Below are positions 23,724-40,779 of a stretch of DNA of 64,000 nucleotides, in pieces; the stretch's first letter is position 1, and each line of letters opens with the position of its first letter. A program made the translations under genes and the position numbers. Source of the stretch: a virus. Location of the stretch: the IMG/VR virus record IMGVR_UViG_3300045988_119396. One strand, written 5' to 3'. Below the pieces are notes generated by a model that worked only from the letters and a program-made list of their open reading frames with translations, made no database searches and had not been told where the DNA came from.

Positions 23724-24755
23724 TTAAGCTACAAATGCTGCTGGCGTTCTAAAATTCATGAGCATATTCAATTCGATTTCGTCATCATCAACAAGTTCGT
23801 AATTGTCTTTGATATAGTTTTTTACAGCACTAGCCATGAAGTTACGAATGTAAACATAAATAAAGCTGCTGGCATTTCTGATAGTTTCTTTGCCACGATA
23901 TACATGTTCAGCGATTTGTAATAATGCAGATTCCAACCCTTTAGACAATAATTCGTTAGTTTCAAAACGTGTAGCCTCCTTGCTTGCTGGTGAATATAAC
24001 CATGTATCACTAGATAGTAACTTGCTTTCAACTTGACTCTTTGCTTTGAAGATAGTGTCTACAAACCACTTAGCTTTACTGTAACTACCTTGTGATAGTG
24101 TCTTAATACGTCCAAATGTAGACTTAGTTAGTACTGGAGCTACCTTATCTTCCAATGATTTAATTGCCATATCGTCTAAATCTTGTTCAGTGGGTTGAGA
24201 AACAGGGTTAACACCAGAATTTTGTGCGGGAGTGTCTGTTTCATTTGTTTCTCTTGTAATATTATTTGTATTTCTCTCTAGGTATTTCTCACTTGTAGGA
24301 ACATTTTTCACGCTCGTGCATGAAATATTTTCACTCACGATTGTATCAACGATTTCAGCCAATTCTTTTTGAGTATCATTTACTTCGACTATTTCTTTAT
24401 TAGCTGCCACTGTTGCTTGTGGTTCATGTACATAAATCTTGTAGTGTCGTAGACCATATCTCTTAACAGTAATTAGACCATACTTCACCAATTCTTTACG
24501 TAAGCTAGATACAGTTCTAGCAGTTGTACGAACTTTTTTAGCAGCCTCTTCATTTGTGAAGAAGATAAATGGTGTTCCATCTGGGTCAACAAACTTACTA
24601 TTTCCATTTTGTGCATTATTAATAGAGCAAGACAATCTTCTTGCATAGAATGAATATAGTAATATTGCTAAACCATTTAATTCCTTGTATCTTTCATCTT
24701 CAACTAATACATCTGATACCATTGAGAATGTATCTTTTCTTTTCAATTCCATCAT
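23724..24755 (-). CDS. plasmid-type replication initiator, RepA_N family
   Basis: N-terminal LAILLYSFYARRLSCSINNAQNGNSKFVDPDGTPFIFFTNEEAAKKVRTTARTVSSLRKELVKYGLITVKRYGLRHYKIYV is a close match to the RepA_N pattern (akilYsll.drl..S..n.w.DenG.vYi.ft.eel.e.l..s..tv.k..keLe..gLI...r.g....iYv). Divergent from parA across a repeat-rich AT-rich region. Confidence 0.6.
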   Translation of the reverse strand: MMELKRKDTFSMVSDVLVEDERYKELNGLAILLYSFYARRLSCSINNAQNGNSKFVDPDGTPFIFFTNEEAAKKVRTTARTVSSLRKELVKYGLITVKRYGLRHYKIYVHEPQATVAANKEIVEVNDTQKELAEIVDTIVSENISCTSVKNVPTSEKYLERNTNNITRETNETDTPAQNSGVNPVSQPTEQDLDDMAIKSLEDKVAPVLTKSTFGRIKTLSQGSYSKAKWFVDTIFKAKSQVESKLLSSDTWLYSPASKEATRFETNELLSKGLESALLQIAEHVYRGKETIRNASSFIYVYIRNFMASAVKNYIKDNYELVDDDEIELNMLMNFRTPAAFVA

Positions 24756-25840
24756 AATTATTTACCTCTTTCAATGAATATTTTTATGATGAAAATCAAA
24801 AAACAATGTGCTATAATGTAGATAACGTATTTAAAAAACACGTTTTCAACTAATATTGTTATTTTTGAAGTTCATCATTTTAATGACTTTTAGTAACGAT
24901 ATTTTTATTTAGCTTATCGTTCGCCAAAACGTAAGCTATTCAATTTAATAGATTTATTTAATTTGTTTACAAACCGTAGTTCGCCAAAACTGACGGTTAT
25001 TTTTTTGTCTAAATTTTATATCAATTTATTTTAATGTACACCCACGTAGTTATCTTAGAGGTACTTACGTGGGTTATTTTATTAGCATAATATATCTTAC
25101 CAGGAAAATGAAGATATGTTAAGTTTTTCCTGGTTTTAAATCGTTTTGAGCACTTTACATGAAGTCTGGCTAACTCACTCATGTACTTTCAAAGTTGCTC
25201 ACGTGTGACTATATGAAGCCTGGTAGAGTTATGTGGTGTGAGATATGTAACCGCCCTACCCTACTTCTATATGTTCAATATAGCACAAAAGAAAACGGAA
25301 TAAAAGAAGTTTCTTGTAATATGCTATTTAATCATAATGATGTTATTTATTATTATTAATATAATAGTATTAACATCATATAAATGCTATATAAGTTATA
25401 TATATAAAGATTATTATTAATATAATCATCATTAATGAATATTAACCATATTAATCTTTAATAAGGTATATATCTTAACATCAATATTATTAATAATACT
25501 AAAAAGATATATATGATATAACAATCAATATTGATTAGTTTTGTAAAGTGTAAATACCTATACAATAGCAATAATAAACACTTCAAGATAAATATACATT
25601 GTTATTAATTCTATTAAGTATACTAAAAAGATATATTTATTCTTATTATTCTTTTTAGTATACTTTCATATTTATTATATATAGTATATATAAATATTAC
25701 AACACAGCGTCAATAATTGGCTATATTAAAAAGATATATTTCACCTAAAGATTAATTTTATTAATAAGATAAACAAATGTTGACCTTAATTTATTTTGGT
25801 GGTACTCTTAACACATAAAGAAAAACTGGAAGTGATTTTA
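24756..25840. promoter_or_regulatory. origin/centromere-like intergenic region (hairpins, direct repeats, parS-like iterons)
   Basis: GTTCGCCAAAAC x2 (24906, 24972). Hairpins ACCCACGTA..TTACGTGGGT (25041-25076) and ACCAGGAAAA..TTTTTCCTGGT (25100-25140). Motif AAAAAGATATAT at 25500, 25625 and 25730, with a fourth copy at ~27165 after parB. 14-bp inverted repeat AGTATACTAAAAAG/CTTTTTAGTATACT at 25612-25665. Confidence 0.45.
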
Positions 25841-26731
25841 ATGAAGTACGATAAAAAGGTTTTCGACAAATTAAAAGAACATATTAGTAAAAAGGGTGAA
25901 GCTATATCAATAGTTATTGGTAATCAAAAAGGTGGTGTTGGTAAGACAGCTAATTCAACTTTAATTTCTTATATATTAGCTGAGAATGGTATCAAAACAC
26001 TTGTAATCGACTTAGACCCACAGGGTGACGCAAGTAAGACAATGACCTTGACTGGTGTTAGGGCTGCAAGAGAAAGGAAAGCTCCAGAGTCAGAATATCC
26101 TGTAATGAGAAAAACTATCTTATTAGGGATTAAAGAAGGGGACTTAACTACGTTACCAATGAAGATAAAGGACAACCTTTACTTACTTCCTAGCTATGTT
26201 GATTTTGAAGGTTTCCCAAAACTACTATATAGAGAAACAAATAACGATAGAGAAGAAACACATTTCTTGAAGAAACTGCTAGACCCATTAAAAGCAGACT
26301 ACGAAGTTATCATTATTGACACTCCACCTCAAGTTAAAGCTGTGACAGACAATGCTATTGTATTTGCTGATTATGTAACTATTTCTTTGCAGACACAAAA
26401 AGACTCTTTAGAAGGTGCTGAAAATTACATAGATACATTAGCAGACCTAAAAGGTGAGTATGATTTACCAATTCAATTATTGGGAATTATCGCAGTATTG
26501 AATGATAAGTATAGTAGTGTTGATGAAGCTATGCTAGAACGTGTACGTGATGAAATATCAGAAAACATCTTATTGGACACAATCGTACCAAATATGGCTA
26601 GGGTCAAACGTTTCCCACTTCAAGGTATTGGGGAGTCTGATAGATACGACAAGAGTGTATTAGACGTTTATAGAGAAGTTGCTACTGACTTCTGCAGCAG
26701 AATATTAGAATTTGAAGAAGATGAAGATTAG
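25841..26731 (+). CDS. parA: ParA/Soj-family partition ATPase
   Basis: Deviant Walker A KGGVGKT (IVIGNQKGGVGKTANS). Walker A' LVIDLDPQGD. Walker B VIIIDTPP. ATG at 25841 with SD GGAAGTGA. The ORF track began at an upstream GTG. Confidence 0.8.
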   Translation: MKYDKKVFDKLKEHISKKGEAISIVIGNQKGGVGKTANSTLISYILAENGIKTLVIDLDPQGDASKTMTLTGVRAARERKAPESEYPVMRKTILLGIKEGDLTTLPMKIKDNLYLLPSYVDFEGFPKLLYRETNNDREETHFLKKLLDPLKADYEVIIIDTPPQVKAVTDNAIVFADYVTISLQTQKDSLEGAENYIDTLADLKGEYDLPIQLLGIIAVLNDKYSSVDEAMLERVRDEISENILLDTIVPNMARVKRFPLQGIGESDRYDKSVLDVYREVATDFCSRILEFEEDED

Positions 26732-27669: not shown

Positions 27670-27933
27670 ATGAAAATTTGTTATAATTGTAAAAAAGAAG
27701 TACCCGAAGATAGTATCTATTGCATGTATTGTGCAGCACCACTTAATGGTGAAGAAGTAACTAAGCAAATAAAAGAACAATTAGATGGTTTTAAGCGTGT
27801 GACAGGCGATAAGACAGATAATGAAGCTGTAAAACATCTATTGAGTTACTGGTACGATAACTTAAACGATGAAAAGAAGGAAAAATACGACAAAATAGAA
27901 CGTGAAGACAAGCAACAAGAGCTATCTAACTAA
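27670..27933 (+). CDS. Zn-ribbon protein (CxxC-x10-CxxC), paralog family with LLSYW motif
   Basis: MKICYNCKKEVPEDSIYCMYCAAP. C-terminal VKHLLSYWYDNLN. ATG at 27670 after SD GGTGAG. Confidence 0.45.
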   Translation: MKICYNCKKEVPEDSIYCMYCAAPLNGEEVTKQIKEQLDGFKRVTGDKTDNEAVKHLLSYWYDNLNDEKKEKYDKIEREDKQQELSN

Positions 27934-28088
27934 TCTAAATAGTGTTATAATAAAAGACGATACAGAGGCTTTATCCTTTTGCCCATCTGTATCACCAATA
28001 TGATATTTTTCCGATTAACCCTTTTGCCTATAGGGGTGTCTTAAGATACTAGCAACATTCCATATAACTTGTTGCTAAATTGAGTTTT

Positions 28089-28124
28089 AGACCGTTGTAT
28101 CCTTCTGCAACGGTCTTTTTATTT
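28089..28124 (+). terminator. rho-independent terminator ending the par operon
   Basis: AGACCGTTG-tatccttctg-CAACGGTCT followed by TTTTTATTT. Confidence 0.6.
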
Positions 28125-28379
28125 AGGTAGACTTCTGTGATTTTTGTCATTTATATTTACATATTTTTATGATAGAATACTAGAAATAGAAAGCCTTTGA
28201 GTATTGAATACACAATGAATGGGAGTCTTGTGTGCGATATAGGGTTATTTTAGACCATTACATTAACTTGTAGTGGTCTTTTCTTTTGTCTTAATTAAGG
28301 ATGTATTATCATAGTCGTATCATAAACTACCCTATAATAAGCTACATTATAGATTTACATACGGTGTTTTAACGTATGA

Positions 28380-29330
28380 TAAGGTAGTATTTGTCATGTA
28401 GGTCTTAAAAACCATACAAATAAGGTTTATTTAGCATTTGTAGGTATTTTATTTTTAGAATTTCGTTTTGAAAACTCAATGTAAGCGTGATAATAAGGGG
28501 CTAATATGATAACTTCTGGAATGAGTGATTTTAGGGGTAAAAACATAAGGTTTACAACCTTGTAAAGCTAGATGTAGATGTGTCGCTTATTAAGGTTCAT
28601 TTTAGAGCTACGAATATAAAATCTGAATAAAAACTAGGTAATAAGTTAATAAAGATAGGATAAATTTATAGTAAAGTTTGGAGAAAAGAAAATTGGGGTG
28701 AGTGAAAAATTCACTGTTTACATGGGCATATTAAGGTAGGTTTTTTGGAAGAATGAAAGAACAATCGAAACTTTTCATTTTTGCACCAGTAGAATGGCTG
28801 CAAGTATATTGTTACAAGGGTGTGACTCACAGGAACTTTTGTCAATGATTTATAGACAAAACTTGATGTGTCTTAGTGCGTATTTTGAGTGGTTTTTGAG
28901 CATGTTTGGAGAGAGCTAAAAGGGGCAAAATCTGTGAAAATGCAAAATATGTGATAAAAGCAGTGGTGATTTGCAGCTGGGAATTGTGAAGATTTTGTGA
29001 AGATTATAATTGGAGTGATTGTGATAGGTGGAATTAATTTTGTGGAATTATAAGATTATTGTTATGTAGTGAGTTAGATTTAGTGTATGGGTATTATAGG
29101 AGTGTAGGGGAGAGAATGAGTGAATTGGAGCTTATTATGGTCGTTAGAGTAGGATATGGCAGTAGGGGAGGGTGAAATAGCGTAGAATAGGGCATAGCAA
29201 GGGGTATTTTGGGTGATATTAGGGTGGAATGGGGAGTGAAATTGGGGTGTGTGGGGTGAGCTACTGTTTCTGAAAGGTTTTGAAAAATTTAAAAGATTTG
29301 AGACAATGTAGGGGGCTTCCAGATGCAAAA
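28380..29330. other. C-depleted (G/T/A-only) noncoding segment with G-tract runs
   Basis: Almost no C on the plus strand, e.g. 28900-29290. Many G3-4 runs (TAGGGGAGGGTG, TGGGGAGTG, GGGGTGTGTGGGGTGAG). No credible ORF on either strand. Confidence 0.6.
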
Positions 29331-29399
29331 TAATTCTAGTTATTTTTTGAAATCTAAAAAAGTATATATTTTGTACCTTGAAAAAGATTAAAAATGAAA

Positions 29400-30300
29400 G
29401 CGTTTACAGAATTAATTCAAGTATTAATATAAATTAATATAAGAAGACGCGTATATAAGTAAAATTTATGGTATCTATAAGAATAACTTATATTTTGCAC
29501 TATTAATAAAATTTGATACACAAAACTTTTATTATACCACACTCCACACAATAACACAATACTATATTTAAAATAATATGTTTCACGTGAAACACGTCTA
29601 GTTTATAACAATTCTAAACCAATAAAAACTCTAACTTACTAAAATTTACTACTTTAAAATTATTCTAAACTAATACAAATTCTAACATTTAAAACATTCT
29701 AAACTGATAAAGATTATAAACTAATAATAAATACAGGTTAATATCATTTACAACATTATAAGAATTATCAATTTATAACTATTCTAAACTACTACTTTAC
29801 TTACTATTAGTTAGTAATAACTCTATATCTTTGATATAGTACATCTACTTGAGGCGGCTGCTACTAATTTACTTACAATAAGTAAGTAACATATACTTAT
29901 ATAACTAGATGTAACACCCTTAACACGTACATAATACTAAAATGTATATTATAGTAGAAACAACACAATAAGCACTAATAACGATAAGCACACGCTTATA
30001 TATGTATCTACACCTATACGCACGTTACTGTATACACTCAAGCCCTTGATGTATCAACGTTTATCACGCTTACATTATATATAATATACATACATAGTGC
30101 ATACATATACATATACTAGATACATCAAACACTAACTATATTTAACACGTTATAAAGCCTATTGCATCAACGATTATCGCACTTATCTAATAATAATCTA
30201 TAATAAAATACTTATAAGAATAAAATAAGCATAAATAAAAGCTCTTATAATTCTACCAATACAAAACACTAATGTGTCAAGTTTTCATAATGTTTTCATA
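29400..30300. other. G-depleted (A/C/T-only) noncoding segment with iteron-like repeats
   Basis: Plus strand nearly devoid of G. Four copies of ATTCTAAAC (29611, 29662, 29696, 29781). Palindrome CACGTGAAACACGTG (~29584). (CATA)n-like low complexity around 30060-30120. Confidence 0.6.
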
Positions 30301-30371
30301 AAGTAAATGAAAGCGGATAAAGCCTTATGAAATAAGGCTTTATAGCCAGTTGAATAATATCATCTTATAAT

Positions 30372-30731
30372 TTACTTACTGGAAGTCAACCCTTGTAAAA
30401 ACGCTTTAAGTGCTATTATATCAGTGTTTGAAAGGGCTTTACCATTGTATGTAACACCAGTTTTCAAAATGGTATCCAATTCATTATTATTGATAAGATT
30501 TTTATTATCTTTATTATCAGATAGACCGTATAAATAATCTAAACTTACATTATACAAGTTAGCTAATTTTAAAGCGTTTGTGCTGGTTAATATGTTTTTA
30601 CCGTGTTCAATATCTGAATAAGTACCGTGACTTTTTAAGTCAATTTTTTTAGCTATATCTTGCATTGTGTAACCTTTTTCAATTCTTAACTCTTTCAAAC
30701 GGGAAGCAGCCGTAAATCTATTGTACAACAT
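30372..30731 (-). CDS. XRE-family HTH transcriptional repressor (CI-like)
   Basis: ASRLKELRIEKGYTMQDIAKKIDLKSHGTYSDIEHGKNI matches the HTH_XRE pattern. Transcribed divergently from the tandem promoter-operator array. Confidence 0.7.
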   Translation of the reverse strand: MLYNRFTAASRLKELRIEKGYTMQDIAKKIDLKSHGTYSDIEHGKNILTSTNALKLANLYNVSLDYLYGLSDNKDNKNLINNNELDTILKTGVTYNGKALSNTDIIALKAFLQGLTSSK

Positions 30732-30883
30732 ATAAATTATTTTAACCTTTCATTTTTTAATATAATAGTAGAAACTATTTAATTGTTACTTTTTATTATA
30801 CCTTACAAACGTTATTATATCAAGGTTTTAACGGGTTTTTATAGTAGATGTTAGCAAACTTTTCAAAAAACATCAAAAAAGTG

Positions 30884-31348
30884 TTGACAAGCTACTAACA
30901 AGGGTTTATAGTGTTTATTGTCGATAAAGTCGACAACACAAAAACATATTTTTTAATTGTAAGCTTCCAATTTTTAAAAATTTTGAAAAAAGGAATTGAC
31001 AAGAAAAAACATATATGTTTTAATAACGTTGTCAATAAGGTCGACAAGTTGGAAGCCGTGAATTGACGGTATATAATATCAATTCATACTTAATTTAATA
31101 AATGCTTCCAGTAAAGGAAGCTACAAAATAAAGATTTTAAAAATCTTTAAAAAGTAGTTGACAAAATGGAAGTTATAAATTATATTAAGAGCGTCGATTA
31201 AATCGACAACTTATATAATAATTTTAGGAAGCTTCCACTTCCTAACCTTGAAAAATCAAGGGTAAAAAGATTTTTAAAATCTTTTTAAAAAGCTCTTGAC
31301 AAAATTCAAGGAAGCAATTATTATATAAATTGTCGATAAGGTCGACAA
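30884..31348 (+). promoter_or_regulatory. array of four tandem promoter + palindromic operator + hairpin modules (rightward)
   Basis: TTGACA at 30884, 30996, 31158 and 31296. Each is followed after 17 nt by a -10 (TATAGT, TTTAAT, TATATT, TTATAT). Each is then followed by the operator TTGTCGA-N5-TCGACAA at 30918-30936, 31029-31047, 31191-31209 and 31330-31348. GGAAGC/GCTTCC hairpins and A/T palindromes (AAAGATTTTTAAAATCTTT) lie between units. Confidence 0.6.
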
Positions 31349-31349
31349 A

Positions 31350-31800
31350 AAAATAAAGCCTCTGAGTTGGGGCTTCCGATAATACCAACTCAATAAGTCA
31401 AAATTTATTTTGTTTGGAAGTACGCCCCGTACGTGGGGCGGGGGTATAAATAGCGTACAAAACACCACTCTTCAGGTGGGGGTGGTGGGTAAAATAAACT
31501 ACTATCTAACCCCTGGGTAGCCCTGGGCGTTCTTTGGACAACTGAATAAAATTTCAAGGGTAGCTCCTTGAGAGTGGAAGCCGTCTTCACTATAAATAAT
31601 ACGGAAGAGCCACGGCAAGCATAGCCGTGACACTCGGCTCAAAGCGGGTTCAATAGGTGGAGTGCATCCTCCCTCGCTTTACTAGCAATGGTAAAGCGGT
31701 ACTATTGTACGTCAATAAAATGGAGAACCTGGCGGGGCTTGCTTAATAACCCGATACGGTAGGGGTTAGCCAGAACGGGCATGAAAACATTAATTCTACC
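31350..31800 (+). ncRNA. GC-rich, densely structured noncoding RNA candidate (~450 nt)
   Basis: No ORF. Sharply higher GC than the flanking sequence. At least ten local helices, including GAGTTGG/CCAACTC, GCCCC-GTACGT-GGGGC, CACCAC/GTGGTG, CTCAAGG/CCTTGAG, GAGCC..CACGGC/GCCGTG..GGCTC, AAAGCGGG/CCTCGCTTT and CTGGC/GCCAG. Downstream of the four tandem promoters and upstream of the first early gene. Confidence 0.45.
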
Positions 31801-31952
31801 AGACTATATATAAATATAGTTTAATGTTTGACAAAACTTGAGTAATCATACAACCTCTAATTTAACAAAATCAATAAATTGATTTTGTTATTAAGCACTA
31901 TGCAAGTAGTGTTTAATATAAAAATCAATAAAATTTAGAGGAGGTACTTATT

Positions 31953-32195
31953 ATGAGTACTAGATTACAAGAAACAACATACGTAAGAAGTGGTAAAGGT
32001 AAACGCTGGAGTTTGAAAGAAACAGAATACATTGATGATTACAGTATCAAGCTATTTGAAAAGCGTATCATTGGTACGGTAGGTTTCTTCAGAAATTTAG
32101 GTGGTACTGAAATTGTATCACGTACTGAATACATGGTGACGTCAATCAGTCCAGACAGTACCAAGAAAGTTGTAAGAAAATTATTATTGTATTAA
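31953..32195 (+). CDS. hypothetical early protein (first gene of early operon)
   Basis: 80 aa, SD AGAGGAGG 8 nt upstream of the ATG. Confidence 0.5.
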   Translation: MSTRLQETTYVRSGKGKRWSLKETEYIDDYSIKLFEKRIIGTVGFFRNLGGTEIVSRTEYMVTSISPDSTKKVVRKLLLY

Positions 32196-34494: not shown

Positions 34495-34605
34495 ATTTTA
34501 GTGTTGACAAGGAAAAATAAAGAAGTTATAATTCAGTTGTCAAGTTAAGAGTACAGAGAATAACTTGATAGCAAAAAATAAAATAATTTGAAAGAGGTAA
34601 TTATT

Positions 34606-40065: not shown

Positions 40066-40779
40066 ATGTCAAATGAGTTACAAAAATTTAATTTTGAAGG
40101 TCAAGATTTAGCAGTTAAGGAAATTGATGGACAAGTTTATTTTAATGCAGAACAAGCTGCCATTGGGTTAGGCATTACCTCAACTTCAAATGGCTATACC
40201 AACGTAAGATGGTCTAGAATCAACAATTATTTAAATTCTGCCACAAGTGGCAGAAAAATTTCAAAGGGTGATTTCATCACAGAACCACAATTTTATAAGC
40301 TCGCAATCAAGGCGAATAATCCAGTTGCAGAAAAATTTCAAGATTGGGTAACTGGTGAAGTTTTACCATCAATTCGTAAACATGGTGCTTACATGACAGA
40401 AGAAACTGTGGAAGAAATTTTAACTAATCCAGATACAATTATTAAATTAGCTACACAGTTAAAAGAAGAAAGATTAGCACATCAAAAGACAAAAGAAGAA
40501 AAATTAATTGTTGAACAACAACTAAGTGAAGCCAAACCAAAAGTTAGTTACTACGACATTATTTTACAAAATCCATCGCTTGTATCAATCACACAAATTG
40601 CTAAGGATTATGGTATGAGTGGTAAAGGTATGAACCAGAAGTTAAAAGAATTAAAAATCCAATACAAGCAAAGCGGAACATGGTTCTTATATTCTAAATA
40701 CCAAGATAAAGGTTGGACTTCATCAGAAACAAAAATTATTCCAACTAGCTATGGTGACAAGGTAACAATGTCCACTTAG
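40066..40779 (+). CDS. phage antirepressor (Bro-N/KilA-N domain + ANT C-terminal domain)
   Basis: N-terminal FNFEGQDLAVKEIDGQVYFNAEQAAIGLG matches Bro-N. C-terminal ITQIAKDYGMSGKGMNQKLKELKIQYKQSGTWFLYSKYQDKGW matches the P22 Ant/ORF6C C-terminus. Confidence 0.6.
   Translation: MSNELQKFNFEGQDLAVKEIDGQVYFNAEQAAIGLGITSTSNGYTNVRWSRINNYLNSATSGRKISKGDFITEPQFYKLAIKANNPVAEKFQDWVTGEVLPSIRKHGAYMTEETVEEILTNPDTIIKLATQLKEERLAHQKTKEEKLIVEQQLSEAKPKVSYYDIILQNPSLVSITQIAKDYGMSGKGMNQKLKELKIQYKQSGTWFLYSKYQDKGWTSSETKIIPTSYGDKVTMST

Follow-up and report, generated by a model that had tools for sequence, protein, structure and literature searches.

In the immunity regions of phages lambda, 434 and P22, a helix-turn-helix (HTH) repressor is encoded divergently from the early operon, dyad operators lie at the early promoter, and phages that otherwise resemble one another swap the repressor's recognition surface along with the operators. 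Phage T7 carries strong tandem promoters for the host polymerase, A1, A2 and A3, about 110-160 bp apart at the head of its early region, and the plasmid prophage of phage P1 is held by C1, a repressor without a cleavable domain whose circuit includes an antirepressor. GIL01, a plasmid-type prophage of a Firmicute, keeps its lytic genes under repressed tandem promoters, P1-P2 (PMC4551915), and the control regions of ribosomal RNA (rrn) operons combine tandem P1-P2 promoters and A/T-rich UP tracts with a boxA and a long, structured untranslated RNA (PMC8632103). AimC, the repressor paired with the aimL promoter in extended arbitrium modules (phages phi106 and BMBtp14), is a short, RecA-insensitive repressor of a divergent lytic promoter (bioRxiv 10.1101/2025.11.23.689978). 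Here we describe a locus that shares features with all of these, at positions 30,884 to 31,348 of a 64,000-nucleotide stretch of viral DNA (IMG/VR record IMGVR_UViG_3300045988_119396; hereafter the window). Four tandem promoter-like sites (P1 to P4), each followed by a palindromic dyad (O1 to O4), face a series of early genes and diverge from a repressor gene. We consider it probable that the promoters, their repression and derepression, and the RNA leader that follows together form the lysis/lysogeny control region of a phage-plasmid resembling pMP1046B of Ligilactobacillus salivarius. We hold the core of promoters, operators and repressor with similar, fairly high confidence, and the proposed UP and boxA functions with less.

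The locus departs from each of the described systems. Unlike in lambda, 434 and P22, each candidate operator lies 3' of the -10 hexamer of its own complete promoter, at about -2 to +18, in two to four tandem units; no operator is shared with the repressor promoter, the repressor has no S24 domain, and no Cro is recognisable. The early promoters of T7, a virulent phage, lack repressor operators, and the C1 operators of phage P1 are many and dispersed over the genome, whereas all operators seen here lie at one locus. The features shared with rrn operons are here phage-borne and apparently repressor-gated, and the RNA is followed by protein-coding early genes. GIL01 relies on host LexA together with the phage co-repressor gp7, on two promoters and on a different operator logic (PMC4551915). 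Each element is known by itself: immunity by repressor and operator, tandem early promoters, UP elements and boxA. The papers searched do not describe their combination, in which a Lactobacillales phage-plasmid has whole cassettes in two to four copies, a repressor promoter free of operators, a repressor of AimC type outside arbitrium and a putative rrn-type boxA leader.

All four promoters lie on the + strand and join a perfect TTGACA -35 hexamer, across a 17-bp spacer, to a -10 hexamer that matches the consensus at four to five of six positions. Module 1 (30859..30936) starts with UP-like A/T tracts (30859-30883), followed by P1 (-35 at 30884-30889, -10 TATAGT at 30907-30912) and O1 (TTGTCGATAAAGTCGACAA, 30918-30936), a perfect TTGTCGA-N5-TCGACAA dyad. 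In module 2 (30971..31047), UP-like tracts at 30971-30995 precede P2 (-35 at 30996-31001; -10 TTTAAT at 31019-31024, with TGt on its 5' side) and O2 (TTGTCAATAAGGTCGACAA, 31029-31047), which has one mismatch (TTGTCAA). The UP-like tracts of module 3 (31130..31209) include an A/T palindrome (31130-31148) and lead to P3 (-35 at 31158-31163, -10 TATATT at 31181-31186) and O3 (GCGTCGATTAAATCGACAA, 31191-31209), a variant whose left arm reads GCGTCGA. Those of module 4 (31266..31348) also include an A/T palindrome (31266-31284), followed by P4 (-35 at 31296-31301, -10 TATTAT at 31319-31324) and O4 (TTGTCGATAAGGTCGACAA, 31330-31348), again a perfect dyad. Each 19-bp dyad begins 4-5 nt 3' of its -10 hexamer, and would thus span about -2 to +18 if the start of transcription is placed 7 nt after the hexamer. 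An earlier note on this DNA had described four TTGACA-N17 promoters in modules facing the early operon, and the anatomy agrees with that description, with a weaker -10 hexamer in P2 than the note had given. The dyads it reported are likewise present, but where it counted one variant there are two, O2 and O3, with one to two mismatches.

Promoters with any adjacent 6-N5-6 palindrome occur four times in the window, against 0.14 expected per 64 kb (both strands, 300 Markov simulations). Four of the six + strand matches to TTGACA-N17-T[AT]NNNT in the window fall inside this 465-bp stretch, and a promoter scan scored P1, P3 and P4 at 11 of 12 matches each. A search for the dyad core TGTCGA-N5-TCGACA, with up to two mismatches, returned the four array sites and a single two-mismatch site at 40769, at chance level, in the 64 kb. 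In pMP1046B, which is complete at 129,218 bp and comes from L. salivarius JCM1046, the dyad is found at four sites only. Boxes for LexA (Cheo boxes) are present in the window at chance level. Leftward promoter-like sites within the array (- strand, 31348..31320 and 31035..31008) lack conservation in pMP1046B and were given no weight.

The repressor has 154 homologues (E <= 1e-5), mostly on contigs of 120-130 kb, and we compared the divergent upstream region in 14 distinct loci, the window included. A search of metagenome contigs contributed six loci, and a profile search of genome contigs with the repressor alignment gave, among the matches listed, nothing closer than XRE genes with 34-47 % identity, which did not help the comparison. 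In the phage collection a single hit was obtained, phiCD211 of C. difficile, whose RepR repressor gene is 79 % identical to the window repressor gene over 75 nt; it has one promoter and a different palindrome, so the tandem array is not common to both. The phage-type loci share one plan: a conserved repressor promoter, two, three or four copies of a TTGACA-17-(-10) promoter with its dyad, and a long leader. The dyad is uniform within a genome and differs between genomes, which sorts the loci into six types. Type A1 (TTGTCGA-N5-TCGACAA; the window, L001 and L003) and type A2 (TGTTCGA-N5-TCGGACA; L014 and L053) have four modules, as do D1 (ATGTAC-N8-GTACAT; L008 and L045) and D2 (TGTAC-N5-7-GTACA; L044). 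Type C (TTTGTCGTT-N7-AACGACAAA; L007, L039, L042 and L046) has three modules and type B (GTACCG-N6-CGGTAC; L006 and L036) has two, with incomplete module counts for L036 and L039, which end at a contig edge. Variation in the copy number of the module among related phages, a possibility raised in the earlier note, is therefore real.

The repressors of these loci are mosaics. Residues 56-119 are 78-97 % identical to the window protein, whereas residues 28-55, comprising the turn and the recognition helix, are only 33-46 % identical to it in types B, C and D. The AlphaFold2 (AF2) model places the recognition helix at residues 35-42, which suggests that the variable block is the DNA-reading surface. 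The dyad covaries with the block of 26 residues that holds the turn and the recognition helix, across six types and 14 distinct loci, with zero exceptions, and this covariation supports the pairing of repressor and operator; the adjacent XRE protein, named in the earlier note as the candidate for operator binding, gains support from it. The A1 and A2 blocks differ essentially in His35/Arg35 and Thr51/Ile51, and their operators differ in the outer half-site bases. Position 51 is not the determinant, as pMP1046B shows. A prediction made beforehand, that the Arg35 protein P0008 would be accompanied by A2 dyads, agreed with its locus (L053), which was fetched later and carries A2.

The same comparison bears on two other readings of the array. 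The palindromes might be RNA stem-loops that stabilise the transcripts at their 5' ends, or might bind some other protein, for instance one that acts in partition; each dyad would indeed fold as a hairpin at the extreme 5' end of its transcript, and a ParA gene lies 4 kb away. However, the copies within a genome share their half-site sequence and not mere complementarity, that sequence changes whenever the adjacent repressor has a different recognition-helix block, and the dyads keep a fixed position 4-5 nt after the -10 hexamer. We regard such a non-operator role as highly improbable, although the dyads may act both as operator and as 5' hairpin. Alternatively, one or two promoters might fire while the other modules serve as extra repressor sites (a sink or a cooperative anchor) or are decaying duplicates. 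This would suit the TTTAAT hexamer of P2, the imperfect O2 and O3, the relatives that function with two or three modules, and the ability of AimC-type repressors to form dimers of dimers (bioRxiv 10.1101/2025.11.23.689978). Yet no module of any type has lost its -35 and -10 hexamers, its 17-bp spacing or its UP-like tracts, and the hexamers are invariant among close relatives, which mere binding sites would not need. In the three A1 genomes none of the 48 hexamer positions varies, compared with 15 % of the remaining positions and 30 % of those in operator spacers; the hexamers appear to be under purifying selection. An array made up mostly of decoys is thus unlikely, and we favour the reading in which all four modules are repressor-controlled promoters.

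The sequences directly 5' of the -35 hexamers are also conserved. Across 30 modules of all types, A occupies -42, -41 and -40 in 30 of 30 and -43 in 28 of 30, is near-invariant at -44, and is followed further upstream by phased T and A tracts. The UP-element consensus of Estrem et al. is reportedly AAAAAARNR for the proximal A-tract, with A/T-rich sequence at -60 to -38. The A/T palindromes, which lie at about -63 to -45 of P3 and P4, match UP-element positions by sequence; the earlier note had correctly reported them but had placed them between units, and they do not appear to be inter-unit spacers. The Listeria rrn promoter has a similar A/T-rich sequence directly 5' of its -35.

The GGAAGC/GCTTCC hairpins reported in the same note are also present in the array. 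A GCTTCC-AGTAAA-GGAAGC hairpin (+ strand, 31104-31121) lies between modules 2 and 3, without a U-tract on the + strand, and a second GCTTCC/GGAAGC hairpin (31224-31245, +) is followed by a CCTTGA/TCAAGG hairpin (31246-31261, +). To its right, O3 is flanked by the P4 -10 region in inverted form (31193-31223 against 31316-31346, 84 %), so that a mirror-image relic of the P4 promoter occupies 31210..31261 (+), with the inverted -10 at 31210-31223 and then the two hairpins. This mirror relation between the O3 flank and the P4 -10 recurs in other immunity types with other sequences, and in the window the GGAAGC hairpin interrupts the mirrored promoter. Judging from these repeats, parts of the GGAAGC and CCTTGA hairpins are evidently remains of an inverted P4 promoter copy next to O3. 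Every immunity type has hairpins both between modules 2 and 3 and between modules 3 and 4; their sequences differ, and those between modules 2 and 3 are unrelated to one another. The 442-nt array gives a fold z-score of about -10 on both strands; we set this aside as evidence for RNA structure and attribute it to the repeated palindromic DNA elements.

These hairpins had led to the suggestion, in the earlier note, that each promoter might make an independent small RNA (sRNA) ending at the next inter-unit hairpin. The recurrence of the hairpins in every type is in keeping with this, as is a 44-nt block 3' of O2 (31060-31103) that is invariant among three genomes. However, a terminator scan detected no + strand hairpin with a U-tract between modules or before the first open reading frame (ORF), and no terminator-like site on the + strand in 30884-31511; at 31121, 31245 and 31348 the scan recorded terminator-like sites for the - strand only. 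Module 1 has no downstream hairpin, the hairpins are partly explained by the inverted promoter relic, and type B has only two modules with the leader directly after the second. With no + strand terminator to separate the modules, four independent sRNAs are very unlikely, and read-through of the array into one long transcription unit is the expected outcome. In its own right, we observed that the segment 31049-31103, 3' of O2, is invariant among three same-type genomes and contains an imperfect GAATTGA-N12-TCAATTC repeat together with a TTGGAA-17-TATAAT site.

The repressor gene (30372..30731, - strand) encodes 119 amino acids with an XRE/HTH_3 N-terminal domain and a small C-terminal domain. 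Pfam HTH_3 (PF01381) matches with an E value of 5.5e-15, HTH families being the only ones found in the 119 residues, with no S24 (LexA-like autocleavage) domain among the Pfam matches; in PHROG it matches transcriptional repressor and regulator families. A promoter-like site, TTGATA-17-TATAAT (30823..30795, -), precedes the gene. No operator dyad is present at or near 30795-30823, the nearest, O1, being about 95 bp from the repressor -35. This promoter region is kept in all immunity types, and also 5' of orphan repressor copies on host megaplasmids. One flank of the gene is a 2.4-kb ORF-poor region and the other is the promoter array.

The AF2 model (pLDDT 83) shows helix 2 at residues 23-29, and a C-terminal part with a helix at 82-92, a beta-hairpin and a helix at 102-116; this C-terminal domain is the most conserved part of the repressor family. 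By phmmer, the best solved relatives are 7t8i (the ImmR DNA-binding domain) and 9iaq (residues 9-116, E 5e-5), and the best full-length Foldseek hits are 9iaq and 9sf2, AimC repressors of arbitrium phages, with probability 1.0. AimC is thus the best full-length match in both sequence and fold. It consists of a five-helix HTH, a linker and an alpha6/beta-hairpin/alpha7 domain that mediates dimers and tetramers and is the target of the small antirepressor AimX, which inactivates AimC (bioRxiv 10.1101/2025.11.23.689978). The model of the window repressor shows this same order of helices, linker and hairpin. In contrast to the AimC systems, its identity to AimC is about 27 %, its host belongs to Lactobacillales and not Bacillus, and its neighbourhood lacks aimR, aimP, aimX and a cro-like divergent aimL; a tandem promoter array has not been described for AimC systems. 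Going by the model, the repressor is AimC-like in fold and lies outside any arbitrium module. The label "CI-like", given to it in the earlier note, holds in the functional sense, but not with respect to an S24 domain, an operator at its own promoter or the fold. Because it combines an AimC-type C-terminal domain with the absence of an S24 domain, inactivation by an antirepressor acting on the C-terminal domain is the most likely mode of induction, by analogy with AimC.

Orphan copies of the repressor are found on repA-type megaplasmids of L. salivarius as one to three tandem units with a period of 486 bp (L012, 3029-4360; L010/L011, 3515-4360; L054, NZ_CP017108.1; L055, NZ_CP114510.1). They lie between rpiA/rpe and a DUF805 gene, and keep the phage repressor promoter and leader without the promoter-operator array. 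The copies differ in their HTH block and match different immunity types, namely C + A + A' in L012 and B + A' in L010. Such a series may be a host-borne multi-immunity locus directed against this phage-plasmid family.

Downstream of O4, about 600 untranslated nucleotides with a fold z-score of -11.9 separate the array from the ribosome-binding site (RBS; 31937-31944, +) of the first ORF. This leader (31349..31952, +) comprises a G-rich hairpin part, a boxA-like element and a structured core that extends to about 31830. As an observation on composition, the RNA of 31349-31830, between O4 and the first ORF, is structured and richer in G+C. Among three to four same-type relatives, 13-17 pairs show compensatory changes; one leader stem, for example, reads CACGGC/GCCGTG, GTATGC/GCATAC or CTAGAC/GTCTAG. 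Two hairpins 5' of the RBS (31863-31890 and 31893-31914, +) are kept in all immunity types with compensatory changes (ATCAAT/ATTGAT versus ATCTA/TAGAT). At least three unrelated leader sequence types occur at this position, independent of immunity type; L053, for instance, combines A2 operators with the leader type of the window. Neither the modules nor the leader, in its window form or in six other variants, matched an Rfam family, with the window searched at gathering thresholds, positions 27800-32000 with E values up to 5 and seven related loci with E values up to 0.1. The first ORF (31953..32195, +) encodes 80 amino acids, has no family match and is not conserved in pMP1046B despite the shared operator type. 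Neither Pfam nor PHROG gave a match for the first four ORFs, and no Cro-like HTH protein was found as the first lytic gene.

The boxA-like element, GTTCTTTGGACAACTGAAT (31529-31547, +), is a variant, with a 1-nt insertion, of the Bacilli rrn boxA GTTCTTTGAAAACT. We take it to be a boxA from the rrn location of the motif and from boxA consensus sequences. The motif, exact or as a 1-nt variant, is common to all leader types and to every immunity type. The exact form, GYTCTTTGAAAACTNNATA, is present in the leaders of L005, L006 (2422-2440, -), L007 (2344-2362, -), L014 and L041, and its sole match outside phage leaders among the compared loci is a Listeria 16S-23S spacer. The window, pMP1046B, L003 and L053 carry GTTCTTTGGACAACT, with one extra base, which makes the match in the window suggestive rather than exact. 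The same motif appears in the rrn leaders and spacers of Listeria and S. aureus as CTTTGAAAACT or CATTGAAAACT, and in a conserved mycoplasma 16S-23S spacer primer, GTTCTTTGAAAACTGAAT (PMC4312986). Nut-like boxA elements of rrn operons sit in rrn leaders and spacers (PMC8632103).

A further reading is that the unit is primarily a transcription-activated lytic replication origin, whose strong repressible promoters would drive the G-rich structured RNA as an R-loop primer, as in ColE1 RNA II or the T7/T4 origins. The G-runs on the RNA-like strand (31440-31500) and the high degree of structure would fit, and since plasmid replication has its own RepA_N/ParA replicon, one would expect the element to have a lytic origin elsewhere in its sequence or here. 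Nevertheless, the G-rich part is absent from several leader types, and both the boxA and the hairpins near the RBS suggest that the transcript runs on into the genes. We consider it very unlikely that the unit is primarily an origin; such a role would in any case be compatible with a repressor-controlled promoter array rather than exclude it. A more far-reaching idea, which we put forward tentatively as a possibility well short of an even chance, is that the early region mimics an rRNA operon. Through UP-boosted, repressor-gated tandem promoters and an rrn-type boxA it would draw on the host machinery for rrn antitermination and RNA chaperoning, and the first lytic product would be an abundant structured non-coding RNA, new to Rfam, that is itself functional, as a decoy, a replication primer or an anti-defence RNA.

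Taking these elements together, we propose the following mechanism. P1-P4 would act as tandem sigma-A promoters with UP-like tracts that feed one long early transcription unit. The repressor would be made constitutively from its own operator-free divergent promoter, and a repressor dimer would bind each dyad through its recognition helix, blocking RNA polymerase at every promoter. Once a small antirepressor acts on the C-terminal domain and the repressor is inactivated, all four promoters would fire, and upstream transcripts would read through the downstream modules. The transcripts would then enter the roughly 600-nt structured leader, where boxA would load NusB/NusE and yield a termination-resistant polymerase that reaches the early operon. 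Sequence and comparison show the anatomy and its conservation, the covariation of repressor and operator, the lack of terminators, the match to boxA and the repressor fold; that the promoters are active, that the repressor binds, that transcripts read through, that Nus factors take part and how induction comes about are inferred.

Several observations weigh against this proposal. The -10 hexamer of P2 is the weakest of the four, with T in place of A at position 2. Types C and B manage with three and two modules, so that four modules are not required. The promoter-like TTGGAA-17-TATAAT in the invariant block 31049-31077 has no operator and, if active, would escape repression. At the 3' end of the repressor gene there is no convincing overlapping small ORF, and no antirepressor or aimX-like ORF was identified beside the gene. 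The boxA of the window contains an extra G and is missed by a search that allows two mismatches. Finally, the centre-to-centre distances between operators (about 96-112, 138-146 and 150-166 bp) vary between types and their helical phase is not conserved, so that the distances do not favour obligatory looping. By analogy with AimC, a dimer of dimers could plausibly bridge pairs of operators cooperatively, and the spacing lends this no support either.

The gene content around the locus is that of a phage joined to a plasmid. Portal, tail and virion proteins are encoded at 1-18 kb (-), and the element also has holin genes, a RepA_N initiator (23724-24755, -) and ParA (25796-26731, +). From 31953 onwards, a + strand series of genes encodes a sliding-clamp-like protein, a Bro-N/ANT antirepressor (40066-40779, +), an integrase and helicases. 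No tRNA or tmRNA was found in the window. The closest named relative is pMP1046B (NZ_CP007648.1), a circular replicon that was published as a putative chromid (PMC4165912) and later noted to resemble a P1-style plasmid prophage (PMC5501583). By its sequence, the window belongs to a pMP1046B-like phage-plasmid, and pMP1046B itself is a phage-plasmid. The early region of pMP1046B also holds IS607/TnpB insertions.

Two other stretches of the window deserve mention. The region 3' of the repressor gene (27934-30371) extends for 2.4 kb without credible ORFs and is 88 % identical to pMP1046B. It contains strong + strand terminator hairpins at 28089-28116 and 28252-28279, and 17-bp repeats with ATTCTAAAC at 29605-29732 and beyond, which look like iterons or a partition site. 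At 34504-34570, within the early gene series, a perfect TTGACA-17-TATAAT promoter is followed by a different dyad, TCAAGTTA-N13-TAACTTGA, 5' of a 220-aa ORF at 34588; this dyad suggests a second regulator.

The six matched repressor/operator pairs on a near-constant scaffold constitute a natural specificity series, in which the A1 and A2 pair differs in little beyond His35/Arg35 at the start of the recognition helix and the outer half-site bases. This series could be used to derive rules of HTH recognition and to build orthogonal repressors for lactobacilli. The repetition of whole cassettes two to four times, together with an operator-free repressor promoter, differs from the lambda design and would have consequences for tightness and for the strength of the burst. 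If its role is confirmed, an rrn-type boxA behind a phage early promoter would extend phage Nus-dependent antitermination beyond the lambdoid paradigm and into Firmicutes. Relatives of pMP1046B are common in the gut metagenomes of pigs, poultry and humans, and the immunity determinants described here help to interpret the host megaplasmid loci that carry orphan repressor copies.

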